Shown: piece by piece, positions 11,431-14,500 of the stretch
Numbering within the stretch: position 1 is the first letter of the stretch
Layout: every line of letters begins with the position of its first letter
NCBI GenBank assembly: GCA_963725075.1
Contig: CAVRXA010000004.1
Coordinates: 3,578 to 67,577, forward strand
Length of the DNA stretch: 64,000 nucleotides
Reading direction: 5' to 3'
From: an uncultured Acidobacteriota bacterium
Lineage (GTDB): Bacteria > Actinomycetota > Acidimicrobiia > Spongiisociales > ZC4RG35
Program-made: the position numbers and the translations under genes
The notes under the pieces: model-generated
The model's database searches: none
Told to the model about the DNA's origin: nothing
The model's input: only the letters and a program-made list of their open reading frames with translations

Positions 11431-11685
11431 CTAGTTCGTCAGTCTTCGCAGCGACCTTCGCAAGGGCCGGGTCTCGATGTTCCCCTCGGCGAGCACAATG
11501 TCGCCAGGCCCGAGTAGAACAGGTACCCGCAACCCATAATCCCTGGTCAGAGCATCGTCCGTGTCGATATCGACCTCGTGGATCGTGCCTCCGACCCTCC
11601 TCACCGCCTTCTCGACGACCGGCCGCGCCTCATCGCAAAGATGACAACCGGCCCTGATCAAGAATCTGAAGACTGAATTGTTCAA
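11431..11685 (-). CDS. Glutaredoxin-like protein (DUF836 type)
   Basis: GCHLCD CxxC motif, VDID, YGLRVPV. Confidence 0.85.
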   Translation of the reverse strand: MNNSVFRFLIRAGCHLCDEARPVVEKAVRRVGGTIHEVDIDTDDALTRDYGLRVPVLLGPGDIVLAEGNIETRPLRRSLRRLTN

Positions 11686-11716
11686 GTAACCACCGTGGGT
11701 GACCGATAATGGACAC

Positions 11717-11864
11717 GCACGGATGGAGGGTCAACCGTTCCCCTCATACCAAGGGCACGTTCGTCCAAGGTGTGAACGGATAGCCTCCCAGCCCGCCCCA
11801 CGGTACGGAACCCTCCTTCGTGCAGATGAGGCCCCCGCCACGCGTGGGGGCCTCATCACTTTTC
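11717..11864 (+). ncRNA. Putative structured ncRNA, 6S-like long hairpin with central bubble, plus terminator
   Basis: GATAAT -10 at 11705-11710. 11717-11738 pairs with 11800-11823; 14/13-nt C-rich bubble; apical stem 11753-11786; terminator hairpin follows. Confidence 0.6.
11825..11864 (+). terminator. Intrinsic terminator
   Basis: 12-bp stem GATGAGGCCCCC / GGGGGCCTCATC followed by ACTTTTC. Confidence 0.75.
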
Positions 11865-11898
11865 GGCGCACCGATCGTGGTCTGCCATCGTGTGAGCG

Positions 11899-11997
11899 TT
11901 GAGACCCGCCACCGCCGTCGTCTTCGTCATCTTGCTGCTTCTCATCGCTGCCGCCGGCATCATCCAGCTGACGTCGATCCTGTCCCAGCCAGGGTGA
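11899..11997 (+). CDS. Putative 32-aa single-TM small protein (not in the ORF track)
   Basis: TTG start; MRPATAVVFVILLLLIAAAGIIQLTSILSQPG*; overlaps the convergent gene end by 38 nt. Confidence 0.4.
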   Translation: MRPATAVVFVILLLLIAAAGIIQLTSILSQPG

Positions 11998-12793
11998 CCG
12001 CCACGCCCGCCGACAGGTTCAACTCCTCGTCGGCAGCGCCCTCCCGAATCGCTATGGCAATCAGCCCGGCCGAATCGACATGCACCAGCGCCTCCCCGGG
12101 CTCGACATCGGAATAGGTGGCAGCCCACGGGATCGTGTGGAGAGTGGCGCCGACCTTCATCGTCAACACGGATCCTGGCGAGACGCCGACCGCCGCCAGG
12201 TCGTCGGGACCGATGTTGGTCTGAACGTTCCCGAACCGATCCACCCACCACGCCTCGCCGGTGACCAGGCTTCCCTGCGTCTCCGGCAGCGGGAGCAGCA
12301 ATGGCTGCACGGCCTCGGGACCAACCTCGGGACCGAGATCCTGGATCGCCGCCTCCCCCGAGGCAAGAAGGGCAGCCGCCGGGGCGAACACATCTCGGCC
12401 GTGAAAGGTCTCGCCCGGCGAGGGAATCCTCGCCTCGGGATTGTCGATCGAGACCATCACCCGGGCCCCGCCCACCATCGCCACTGCCGGCGAAAGCACC
12501 CCGTTGTCCGGACCGACGAAGAAGCCCCAGTCTGTCTCCAGGGCCAGCGCCTTGCGCTCGGAGCCGACACCGGGGTCGACCACCACGAGGGCGACTCCTT
12601 CCGGGAGATACTGGATGGCACGGGTCAGACTGAGGGCGGCGGCCTTCACATCACCCCGCGGAGTGCCATGGCCGACATCGATGACGCGTGACTCCGGCGC
12701 CAGCTTTGCCAGCACCCCATGCACCACGCCTACGAACTCGTCGGAGTGACCAAAGTCGGACAGGAAGCTGATGGGGAGTGCGTTGTCGGTCAT
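11960..12793 (-). CDS. SAM hydrolase / SAM-dependent halogenase family (DUF62)
   Basis: LSDFG, VVDPGVG, GPDNG, TFHGRDVFAP, DRFGN. Confidence 0.92.
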   Translation of the reverse strand: MTDNALPISFLSDFGHSDEFVGVVHGVLAKLAPESRVIDVGHGTPRGDVKAAALSLTRAIQYLPEGVALVVVDPGVGSERKALALETDWGFFVGPDNGVLSPAVAMVGGARVMVSIDNPEARIPSPGETFHGRDVFAPAAALLASGEAAIQDLGPEVGPEAVQPLLLPLPETQGSLVTGEAWWVDRFGNVQTNIGPDDLAAVGVSPGSVLTMKVGATLHTIPWAATYSDVEPGEALVHVDSAGLIAIAIREGAADEELNLSAGVAVTLAGTGSTSAG

Positions 12794-12814
12794 GCGTGGT
12801 CCTATATTGCCGCG

Positions 12815-13696
12815 ATGTCCGAGACGAGCCACGACGGAGTCGCGCGGGAGGTGTCCCGTGCGAATGTGGCCATGCTCCTGGGCAGCGTCGACACGGGGAA
12901 GACGACCCTCGCTCTACAGGCGGCTCGTCTCGCCCTCGGCGCCGGCCGGACCGTTGCGATCGTCGACGCCGACGTGGGCAACTCGACCGTCGGGCCCCCG
13001 GCGTGTGTCGGGTTGAAGATCCTTCGCACTCCAGAGGACCTCGAAGACGTGGCGACACCGGACCGGCTCCACTTCGTGGGAACCATCTCCCCCGCGCGAC
13101 TCGTCCTGCAACAGGTCGTCGCCACGGCGGCGATGGTGGACGTGGCCCGCGGCATGGCCGACCTCGTGATCCTCGATACGACCGCAGTCGTTTCCGGGGT
13201 CGCCGGTGAGACTCTCAAGTACCACAAGGCGGAGCTGTGTCGACCGGACAAGGTCGTTGCCCTGCAACGTGGCGGTGAGATGGAGCCGGTGGTCGGAATG
13301 CTGCGCCGGTTCCTGGGCATGGAGGTGACCGTCACCCCCGCCGACCCCAATGTGATGCCCATCTCCCCTGACGAGCGGGCCCAGCGGAGGACCGAGTCGT
13401 TTGCCCGGGCGCTGGCTCCGCCACTCGATCGGTGGAAGGTCCGTCCCACGGTCTTCGCACCGACGCTTCCGATGGGTCTCAACCTGGGACGGCTCGACGA
13501 TGTGCTGGTCGGCGTACAGGACGAGGACGGTGGTTGTCTGGGCCTCGGGATCCTCGGCAACGAGGAAGACGGGCTCAGGGTGATGACCAACACCGGCGAA
13601 GGGATGAAGGGTCTCCGTCTCGGATCGATGCGTCTCGACCCGGTGACGCTCGAGGCCAGCGTTATCAGCCTGCGCGAGGTGATGTTCGGGATTTAG
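12815..13696 (+). CDS. Clp1/Grc3-like polynucleotide 5'-kinase family P-loop protein
   Basis: Walker A GSVDTGKTT, DADVGNSTVGPP, Walker B ILDTT, LKYHK. TATATT -10 lies 6 nt upstream of the ATG (leaderless). Confidence 0.8.
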   Translation: MSETSHDGVAREVSRANVAMLLGSVDTGKTTLALQAARLALGAGRTVAIVDADVGNSTVGPPACVGLKILRTPEDLEDVATPDRLHFVGTISPARLVLQQVVATAAMVDVARGMADLVILDTTAVVSGVAGETLKYHKAELCRPDKVVALQRGGEMEPVVGMLRRFLGMEVTVTPADPNVMPISPDERAQRRTESFARALAPPLDRWKVRPTVFAPTLPMGLNLGRLDDVLVGVQDEDGGCLGLGILGNEEDGLRVMTNTGEGMKGLRLGSMRLDPVTLEASVISLREVMFGI

Positions 13697-13783: not shown

Positions 13784-14500
13784 ATGCCCGGGAAGAAGCA
13801 TTGGCTCTCGCTGCTGCTGGTCGCATTCATCTCGACCACGCTTGGCGTTGCCGCAACCGCTGATTCGGGAACGGAGAGTCAGTTCGTCTCCCTGATCAAC
13901 TCGACACGCGCCAACAACGGCCTGGGGGCGCTCGAAGTAGACGGCGGTCTCCGATCACATGCCCGGAACCACACCCAGGCGATGATCGACAAGGGCGACA
14001 TCTTTCACTCCAGTTCGGGCGAGCTCTCGGCCGCCGCCGGCAGTGGCTGGTCACGAGTCGGCGAGAACGTCGGAAGGGGGCAGGCGCCTTCGTCCCTGCA
14101 CACGGCGTTCATGAACTCGTCCGGTCACGCCGCCAACATCCTCGGCGATTACAACTACGTCGGCGTCGGGACCGGCACCTCCAGCGACGGATCCCTGTAC
14201 GTGACCGTGGTGTTCATGAAGAAGGGCGAAACCGCCCCACCGACGACCGAGGCGCCGCCGACCACCGAGGCTCCGGCAGCCCCAACGCCGCCATCCGACT
14301 CACCCGCCACCACGGCACCGCCCTCGGACGACGGGGGCGAGCCGGCAGCCCCGGCACCGACCACGACCACACCCTCGACCACAACCACCGTGGCGCCGTC
14401 GACGACGACAACGACAATGGTCGTGCCGCCGGACCGGGCGGTGGTGCCGGGTCAGTCGTGCATCGAGGCGAGCCGGTTCGCCCAACTCTGTCACGATTGA
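13784..14500 (+). CDS. Secreted CAP (SCP) domain protein with Pro/Thr-rich tail
   Basis: Signal peptide, INSTRA..GL..L, GENVG, FMNSSGHAANIL, VGVG; PTTEA/PTTTT linker. Confidence 0.88.
   Translation: MPGKKHWLSLLLVAFISTTLGVAATADSGTESQFVSLINSTRANNGLGALEVDGGLRSHARNHTQAMIDKGDIFHSSSGELSAAAGSGWSRVGENVGRGQAPSSLHTAFMNSSGHAANILGDYNYVGVGTGTSSDGSLYVTVVFMKKGETAPPTTEAPPTTEAPAAPTPPSDSPATTAPPSDDGGEPAAPAPTTTTPSTTTTVAPSTTTTTMVVPPDRAVVPGQSCIEASRFAQLCHD

Follow-up and report, generated by a model that had tools for sequence, protein, structure and literature searches.

A predicted small RNA family of Acidimicrobiia and some Thermoleophilia with covarying helices and an invariant C-rich strand

Acidimicrobiia and Thermoleophilia are abundant actinobacteria of soils, freshwater and marine environments, and, as far as we know, regulatory RNAs have hardly been characterised in either class. 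In the 64,000-nt stretch of DNA analysed here (the window), which comes from a genome of the class Acidimicrobiia, the gap between a glutaredoxin-like gene and a DUF62 gene raises the question of whether such an RNA is encoded there and, if so, to what kind it belongs. A preliminary description had proposed an unannotated gene on the + strand for a small RNA resembling 6S RNA, with its own promoter and terminator. We find that the gene is borne out and that the 6S identity is not, and that the predicted RNA belongs to a family whose most conserved part is predicted to be mostly unpaired.

Table 1. Coordinates of the predicted RNA, its parts and the neighbouring genes in the window
Feature	Position	Strand	Sequence or description
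Glutaredoxin-like gene	11431-11685	-	Pfam Glrx-like
Intergenic gap	between the glutaredoxin-like and DUF62 genes		274 bp; holds the GATAAT box, the rod and the terminator hairpin in sequence
-10-like box	11705-11710	+	GATAAT; 6 nt before the first paired base; direct reading
Predicted RNA, entire	11717-11863	+	about 147 nt, being a 108-nt rod (11717-11823) plus terminator
P1, 5′ strand	11717-11731	+	GCACGGAUGGAGGGU; pairs with ACCCUCCUUCGUGC (11810-11823) in the MFE and centroid structures
P2, 5′ strand	11735-11738	+	CCGU; pairs with ACGG (11805-11808)
P3, 5′ strand	11744-11750	+	UCAUACC; pairs with GGUGUGA (11769-11775)
P4 hairpin	11753-11766	+	GGGC / GUCC; loop ACGUUC (11757-11762)
One-sided bulge	11776-11804	+	ACGGAUAGCCUCCCAGCCCGCCCCACGGU; 29 nt on the 3′ side, between P3 and P2; predicted single-stranded
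Invariant 18-mer	11782-11799	+	AGCCUCCCAGCCCGCCCC; contains the anti-Shine-Dalgarno core CCUCC
Intrinsic terminator	11825-11863	+	14-bp hairpin (11825-11838 / 11844-11857), then AC, then UUUU at 11860-11863
DUF62 / SAM hydroxide adenosyltransferase gene	11960-12832	-	
Separate CAP gene	13784-14500		intact, without the RNA; beyond the DUF62 gene and a Clp1-like kinase gene

On the evidence of its sequence, the locus is an unannotated, independently organised gene for a structured small RNA on the + strand (Table 1): the element is deeply conserved, its helices covary strongly, it comes with a -10-like box and a terminator, and its orientation flips between lineages. The GATAAT box, already named as the -10 element in the preliminary description, is conserved at the right distance from the stem; in the alignment it is invariant in nearly all members of the genus, two of them having GATAGT, and members of the family carry GATAGT or GATGTA. 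Judged from this -10-like box alone, the RNA would start about 6-7 nt past GATAAT, near 11717. A simple consensus scan called no + strand promoter at the locus, because the -35 element is poor, and called one on the - strand, TTGACC-17-CATTAT (11734-11706), which shares its AT box with GATAAT. Being common to both, this box may therefore work in both directions, and it could equally belong to the divergent glutaredoxin-like gene. The terminator, described earlier as a 12-bp hairpin, is a strong + strand terminator whose hairpin we measure at 14 bp. It is G+C-rich and covaries in the alignment (GAGGCCCCCGC, GGGGCCCUCGC, GAAGCCUCCCC, GAGACCUCCC), its U-tract is present on the + strand only, and it was missed by the consensus scan because that scan demands five U residues.

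The + strand folds with a minimum free energy of -79.9 kcal/mol (z = -6.2, with none of 200 shuffles as good) and the - strand with z = -3.75. We considered an RNA read from the - strand and ruled it out by the U-tract, found on the + strand only, and by the many G·U pairs, which would be A·C mismatches on the - strand and therefore fix the RNA strand as +. A leader or riboswitch was likewise ruled out, since no + strand gene follows the terminator and the DUF62 gene is convergent in most genomes. In two genera (L046 and L048) the orientation of the RNA with respect to DUF62 is reversed, and terminators come after the RNA in many lineages. Within Acidimicrobiia the RNA and DUF62 remain adjacent through inversions of either partner (L046, L048); in Thermoleophilia-type loci DUF62 is not next to the RNA. 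The Clp1-like kinase gene adjoins the RNA only in the window's order and is absent from the five loci of other orders examined in which the RNA is embedded in a CAP-domain gene (see below).

How widely is this RNA found? BLASTN recovered the element from 61 of 61 sampled relatives, always in the same position, with a conserved core that is kept across the order. We then relied on R1, a covariance model of the RNA core whose E-values are rough, which scores the window RNA at 81 bits. Of 301 class genomes, 108 contain the RNA, at one copy per genome; among the 237 of high quality the count is 99, and the RNA is missing from the other 58%. R1 matches every sampled genome of the window's family. 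It finds no copy in four other families of the same order, f2, f9, f10 and f11 (names of families and orders are anonymous labels here), or in the small-genome marine lineages. An apparent second copy on contig C5 is not a true paralogue, contigs C4 and C5 being colinear at about 94% identity. Seven genomes outside Acidimicrobiia in a phylum-wide sample also match the model; at the four outside loci that were inspected, the same 18-mer comes after a hairpin, within a rod, and is followed by a good terminator, and Thermoleophilia-type loci retain the rod-plus-bulge shape. These predicted RNAs make up an uncatalogued family that spans Acidimicrobiia and some Thermoleophilia; Rfam 15 has no entry for it, and the motif is undescribed in the literature searched.

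The rod is built from helices P1 to P4. P1 is the long outer stem of the preliminary description, and its pairing is kept in the genus variants GGAAGGAGGGU / ACUCUCCUUC. The ACCGU/ACGGU helix proposed to follow it was half right: the short CCGU/ACGG helix (P2) is real, and the register has to be shifted to the neighbouring CCGUY/RACGG, which we prefer and which covaries in the genus, CCGUU/AACGG giving way to CCGUC/GACGG in L028, L030 and L050. In other families P2 is a covarying helix of 6-9 bp with unrelated sequence (GCUCCACC/GGUGGAGC, GCUCCGCC/GGCGGAGC, UUGACAUCG/CGAUGUCAA and others). P3 covaries as well (CAUGCC/GGCGUG, UACAAC/GUUGUA, GAGCACC/GGUGUUC and GAGACC/GGUUUU): within the window's order it is 92.8% paired, compared with 16-46% for slid controls, and changes on both sides occur in three of its six pairs, and in the class alignment all seven of its pairs (7/7) show double changes. 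P4 is 82.6% paired in the window's order, with mostly one-sided changes; the sequence and length of this hairpin vary freely over the class, the CACGUUC loop being kept only in the window's order. Covariation in relatives, which the preliminary description had named as a check, is present in P2 and P3.

Class-type RNAs, those of the rest of the class, are longer, at 105-130 nt, owing to an additional helix. Their P1 is CCGGGGUUCCGG / CCGGAACCCCG and their P2 is CGUGGGYGUGGGCGU / ACGUCCGCNNCUGCG, followed by P3 and the variable hairpin. We infer that the inner part of P1 together with P2 in the window (GGGU-CAA-CCGU / ACGG-A-ACCC) is homologous to class P1 (GGGGUUCCGG/CCGGAACCCC), and that the window's order has lost the class P2. 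RNAalifold predicts the rod from 29 class-type sequences, with compensatory change in 21 of 30 pairs. When pairs are counted over the class alignment, 91.8% of cells are paired, compared with 41-47% for slid partners; double changes are found in 21 of 28 pairs, compared with 10.5 ± 2 in shuffles, and none of 500 shuffles reaches any of five measures, the shuffle control being one that ignores phylogeny and the slid-partner control one that does not. The helices vary freely in sequence yet stay paired, and they appear to be a scaffold that presents an invariant strand.

That strand is almost without variation. The 17-mer GCCUCCCAGCCCGCCCC (11783-11799) is identical in all fetched homologues but two, L090 and L112 (GCCUCCCAGCCCGUC...), the latter a weak second copy; both depart from it after CCCG, and the base preceding it is mostly A, with G, U or C in a few homologues. 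Among 40 fetched class-level matches, the core CCUCCCAGCCCG is present in 40 and the complete 17-mer in 38. A scan for exact matches in 185,579 species genomes returned mainly Acidimicrobiia, together with scattered chance matches and unrelated taxa, and two Thermoleophilia-labelled records, at least one of which is a chance match within coding sequence. The bulge that holds the strand measures 25-29 nt across the family (class sequence AUGGAACNAGCCUCCCAGCCCGCCCCAAGC), and its sequence alone is constant across the family, which argues that the bulge is the working part.

The bulge is also strongly one-sided: the 5′ side opposite it has only 4-5 nt in the window, and in the class-type L096 about 1 nt faces 28 nt. 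Partition-function folding gives the same rod in each of four lineages. In the window, the mean unpaired probability is 0.68 over the invariant strand, compared with 0.28 for the rest of the RNA; in three homologues from other lineages the invariant strand is unpaired at 0.55-0.74, and over the four lineages the values elsewhere in the RNA are 0.19-0.28. By this folding, the invariant strand is predicted to be mostly unpaired and hence exposed, and we found no conserved pairing partner for the bulge inside the RNA. The C-rich tract in the window, GGAUAGCCUCC, is similar to GGAUCACCUCC at the 3′ end of the organism's own 16S rRNA. As a separate observation, an alternative pairing of the bulge, of GAACGG with CCGUUC in the window or of UGGAAC with GUUCCG in the class, can be drawn in some lineages and is impossible in L035 and L040.

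With this structure in hand, the resemblance to 6S RNA can be judged. The resemblance was to be provided by a symmetric 14/13-nt unpaired bubble, the 5′ strand of which, UCAUACC, is in fact paired with GGUGUGA in P3, and the pairing covaries; an open-promoter-like bubble is therefore absent. Within the window's order the apical stems drawn above the bubble, GGGC/GCCU and CGUUCG/UGAACG, could form, being 87.7% paired, but they lack compensatory changes and pair no better than shuffles. The element UCAUACCA, likened earlier to the E. coli 6S bubble, does occur in E. coli 6S RNA; here it is confined to the window's family, and the likeness to E. coli 6S is therefore coincidental. Rfam searches, which covered the whole window with the gathering score as threshold and 11600-12000 with E <= 10, gave no relevant family, the only match at E <= 10 being an 18.8-bit, terminator-driven match to ncS011. 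The 6S model RF00013 matched the control genomes and gave nothing in the window, in the genome from which the window comes or in 121 class genomes.

The general properties point the same way. A 6S RNA would be expected to have about 160-200 nt, whereas the body in the window measures 108 nt, and those in the class alignment 105-130 nt; to have a central bubble open on both strands between long flanking helices, whereas here the 5′ strand of the bubble is paired and the loop has 4-5 nt facing 29 nt; and to be present throughout the clade in the manner of a housekeeping RNA, whereas this RNA is present in 99/237 high-quality class genomes. With no 6S match, no open bubble, a short body, an identity set by sequence and a distribution that leaves out most of the class, the RNA does not support the 6S-like identity. 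The class is still without a recognisable 6S RNA, and the present RNA is unlikely to fill that gap; the literature searched has no report of 6S or Ms1 from Acidimicrobiia or Thermoleophilia.

In some lineages the same DNA also encodes a protein. In families f28, f30, f35, f39 and f44, the R1 match falls within a complete ORF whose product is a secreted CAP-domain protein made up of a signal peptide, the CAP domain (Pfam CAP, 7e-12), a Pro-rich linker and a short C-terminal segment; the RNA extends over the final ~35 codons of that domain and into the linker. In this embedded form, the 5′ strands of P1 and P2 encode ...DPGFRYVGVGVV, with the 5′ strand providing the codons of the CAP motif PGFRYVGVGV; the hairpin encodes the last β-strand, NGTLYVSEVF; the bulge encodes ME-x-ASQPAP, with the invariant strand read as A-S-Q-P-A-P; and the 3′ strands encode STSA-x-AAGTP. 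The embedded helices covary, also at third codon positions (GAAUGCC/GGUAUUC, GAGCGCC/GGCGUUC, GAACACC/GGUGUUU), and the closing stem CCGG/CCGG becomes CCAG/CUGG in L094.

We aligned 11 CAP-embedded genes and compared codons wherever a pair of sequences has the same amino acid, using the same sequence pairs in every region. The fraction of identical codons is 0.48 in the upstream CAP domain, 0.80 in the seven codons directly before the RNA (HYxNLxD), 0.84 in the RNA region and 0.58 downstream, which indicates that the CAP-embedded RNA is under RNA-level selection as well. The seven codons before the RNA are AT-rich, with the rare codons NNA AAT CTC AYA GAT and a G+C fraction of 0.29-0.43, compared with 0.62-0.73 for the ORF, and this stretch could be an internal promoter. 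The nearest parallel is E. coli MicL, which is transcribed from a promoter inside cutC. Similar to MicL and to dual-function RNAs, the RNA overlaps a real coding sequence in five families of Acidimicrobiia and has the AT-rich stretch upstream; unlike MicL, the entire structured RNA is translated in mid-ORF, rather than lying at a 3′ end or in a UTR, and it is a free gene in other lineages.

In each of the five CAP-embedded loci that we examined, the gene that holds the RNA is the only CAP gene within 6 kb and is convergent with DUF62, and in the window the RNA sits where those loci have the CAP gene. In the genus g96, the upstream part of the CAP gene has decayed and the RNA part is intact (L081, L083, L085). 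Other Acidimicrobiia families have stand-alone RNAs in which the CAP-like 5′ strand survives as nucleotides (GGGGUUCCGGU-CG-GGGUGUGGGCGU), and Thermoleophilia-type copies have a related G-rich strand, GGUGGUGGGACGUCAG, and no CAP gene nearby. We tentatively suggest that a dual-use RNA/CAP gene, its DNA still shared in five families, was later resolved into a free small RNA and a separate CAP gene. Such a resolution into separate RNA and protein genes would be the simplest reading of these comparisons.

What might the RNA do? We think it possible, if short of probable, that it acts in trans by pairing its C-rich, anti-Shine-Dalgarno-like strand with G-rich sites on mRNAs. Transcription would start about 6-7 nt past GATAAT and stop at the 14-bp terminator; the rod P1-P2-P3-P4 would display the C-rich bulge strand with its CCUCC; this strand would pair in trans with G-rich, Shine-Dalgarno-like stretches of mRNAs; and the pairing would alter translation or stability, as with 6C and RsaE/RoxS, the CCUCCCAGCCC tract being the part expected to influence mRNA or protein levels.

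Two groups of known RNAs serve as models. In 6C (Rfam RF01066; B11 in mycobacteria), the part that matters for function is a C-rich unpaired sequence, described as pairing with G-rich regions of mRNAs. Both 6C and the present RNA are stand-alone actinobacterial small RNAs of about 100 nt that end in a terminator and have a conserved, C-rich, unpaired part. However, 6C has two hairpin loops with runs of at least six C, whereas here a single rod carries the bulge tract CCUCCCAGCCCGCCCC, in which the longest run of C is four. The 6C model RF01066 gave no match to the RNA at E <= 10, and in 61 genomes of the class it gave none above the cut-off and one sub-threshold match elsewhere, a search of limited sensitivity in that the C. 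glutamicum control also fell below the cut-off. The RsaE/RoxS RNAs of Firmicutes are widely conserved small RNAs that act on many mRNAs through invariant C-rich motifs, which serve as anti-Shine-Dalgarno seeds. They share with the working model a conserved C-rich motif as the proposed seed, and differ in belonging to another phylum, in their fold, where hairpin loops and a linker carry the C-rich motifs, and in having known targets in the case of RsaE; no Rfam match links the present RNA to them.

The search for targets in the organism's own genome gave little. The invariant tract CCUCCCAGCCCGCCCC, predicted to be unpaired (0.55-0.74), is complementary to GGGAGG-type sites, as an anti-Shine-Dalgarno seed would be. 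Exact complementary words in the genome show no excess over a reversed control, and in a seeded duplex-energy scan of this genome, with its 65% G+C, the energies do not discriminate. Scanning the ribosome-binding sites gave 21 weak candidates with at least 9 nt of complementarity to the invariant strand; the best clean match, which is 11 nt long and precedes a fabF-like gene, sits in the end of an acpP-like ORF and is therefore confounded. In addition, the 18-nt invariant block exceeds a typical small RNA seed and would suit a protein-binding or ribosome-binding site at least as well.

The 18 invariant bases therefore make docking of a protein or ribosome factor a serious rival to pairing with mRNAs. 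On this account, which we regard as unlikely yet by no means negligible, the RNA would be a decoy or scaffold whose rod only presents the C-rich docking strand, and its partner would be a conserved protein with an affinity for C-rich single-stranded RNA. Candidates are Rho, KH-domain proteins such as those of the KhpA/KhpB type, and factors of the ribosome or its maturation whose normal target is the 16S 3′ tail. The run of 18 successive invariant bases in two classes with no covarying partner within the RNA, the absence of enrichment among complementary genomic sites, the exposure of the strand predicted by the thermodynamic ensemble and the resemblance of GGAUAGCCUCC to the GGAUCACCUCC of the 16S tail are all consistent with docking, but no gene for a candidate protein accompanies the RNA wherever it occurs: DUF62 is next to it only in Acidimicrobiia and the Clp1-like gene only in the window's order. 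A partner of a different sort would be RNA polymerase, to which the RNA might bind as a short functional analogue of 6S, Ms1 or CoRP. Here the emptiness of RF00013 in the genome itself and in 121 class genomes makes the niche look vacant, the RNA is single-copy and rod-shaped with a large internal loop, and the RNAs associated with actinobacterial RNA polymerases are diverse and sometimes short (PMC11077062): scr0792 has about 85 nt and CoRP has 516 nt, and one such RNA has been proposed per species (PMC11077062). The vacant niche and this diversity are why we retain the idea, which we nevertheless judge improbable. Like 6S, Ms1 and CoRP, the RNA is a single-copy rod with an internal loop and its own predicted transcription unit; unlike them, it has 108 nt rather than 160-500 nt, is defined by an invariant sequence rather than by shape, and has a one-sided loop. 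Ms1 in particular has about 300 nt, lies beside a HAD-IB hydrolase gene and binds the RNA polymerase core (PMC9130861), whereas the neighbours of the 108-nt rod are glutaredoxin-like, DUF62 and Clp1-like genes. Moreover, the loop, with 1-5 nt on its 5′ side, offers no template-like strand and no A/U-containing -10 mimic, the strand of the formerly proposed bubble is paired, no Rfam family matches, and 58% of high-quality class genomes lack the RNA, including four families of the window's order.

Two further alternatives start from the coding sequence instead. In one, the structure would be a cis-acting element of the CAP mRNA that serves its stability, translation or processing, and the window copy would be a relic left after loss of coding; the position of the RNA within complete secreted CAP ORFs in f28, f30, f35, f39 and f44, the CAP motif encoded by its 5′ strand and the visible decay of the upstream CAP part in g96 fit such a history. 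A relic, however, would hardly preserve 17 of 17 bases, nor would its helices covary, in an order whose flanking proteins are only 40-60% identical. Stand-alone copies also have terminators, and those of the window's genus, L098 and L111 have a -10-like box too; Thermoleophilia-type copies have no CAP gene nearby; and the window has a separate intact CAP gene (Table 1) that does not contain the RNA. We consider this account very improbable. A small protein, encoded by a 67-codon ORF (11699-11902, +) or a 46-codon ORF (11731-11871, -), is scarcely credible: both ORFs exist, and the + frame reads the invariant strand as A-S-Q-P-A-P as in the CAP-embedded relatives, but close relatives differ by indels of 1, 2 and 5 nt that disrupt both frames before and after the invariant strand, the start codon is not conserved, and substitutions track base-pairing rather than codon periodicity. 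We rejected the small-ORF reading on account of the frame-breaking indels.

The present analysis corrects the reading of this locus as a 6S RNA gene and gives Acidimicrobiia and Thermoleophilia a well-defined, strongly covarying predicted small RNA. Its invariant 18-base strand provides a handle for pull-downs and mutagenesis. The CAP-overlapping versions bring measurable selection at synonymous sites, and offer a natural system in which to follow how one sequence can serve an RNA gene and a protein gene together and later be split between them. If the dual-use reading is true, a deeply conserved regulatory RNA would have been born from, or overprinted on, protein-coding sequence.

The contig that carries the window (C4, 73,281 bp) is colinear with a second contig of the same genome bin (C5, 70,989 bp) over essentially its entire length, at about 92–95% identity, so the bin (G000) is probably a mixture of two related strains. 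Any apparent second copy of a window feature in this genome, including the RNA match on C5, is probably an artefact of that mixture. Another genome, of family f26, holds a weaker second match (L112, G092:C22), in which the invariant strand has diverged (GCCUCCCAGCCCGUCC) and which has its own CACAAT box and rod; this locus may represent either a genuine paralogue or a duplicate in decay.

Exact matching of the 18-nt invariant strand against the genome collection also returned about ten identical occurrences in Pseudomonas. Each lies inside some 60 nt of conserved sequence with stop codons at both ends, between which this sequence reads ASQPAPLTAACASGCKSAP. It looks like a conserved intergenic element of Pseudomonas whose context is unrelated to that of the actinobacterial RNA.

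Location of the matches and neighbouring features discussed in the text
Feature	Location	Strand
Second RNA match in G000	C5:14747-14926	
Pseudomonas spp. records with the 18-mer	L148, L152, L157, L169, L180, L181, L210, L227, L230, L238	
DUF62 and Clp1-like kinase genes	window 11960-13696	
acpP-like ORF end and fabF-like ribosome-binding site	C2, ~67128-67160	-
Sigma-70-like promoter, TTGACC-17-CATTAT	window 11706-11734	-

On a further contig, C2, a fabF-like gene has its ribosome-binding site in the end of an acpP-like ORF (…GKLGG and stop). The last codons of this ORF contain GCUGGGAGGCU, an 11-nt perfect complement of the RNA's invariant strand; the site is a possible, though confounded, target.

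In L082, L086 and L087, where the RNA lies within the ORF for a secreted CAP-domain protein, a second conserved hairpin, CGGCGCC-NNN-GGCGCCG, closely follows its 3′ strand. The hairpin encodes S-A-P-x-A-P-A, the loop codon being the sole variable part, and may mark the 3′ boundary of an RNA released from the CAP mRNA, or protect such an RNA.

In the window, the DUF62 gene and the Clp1-like P-loop kinase gene point away from each other, with an overlap between their longest ORFs. The two are neighbours only in the taxonomic order to which the window belongs; no Clp1-like gene was found next to DUF62 in any of the five loci examined from other orders. On the other side of the RNA, the AT box of the minus-strand promoter is the same as the RNA's GATAAT box. 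The glutaredoxin-like gene has a TTG start, and transcription from this promoter would be predicted to begin about 14 nt ahead of it. Shared by both strands, the AT box would form a predicted compact bidirectional promoter, with the minus-strand −35 element lying within P1, the outer stem of the RNA.
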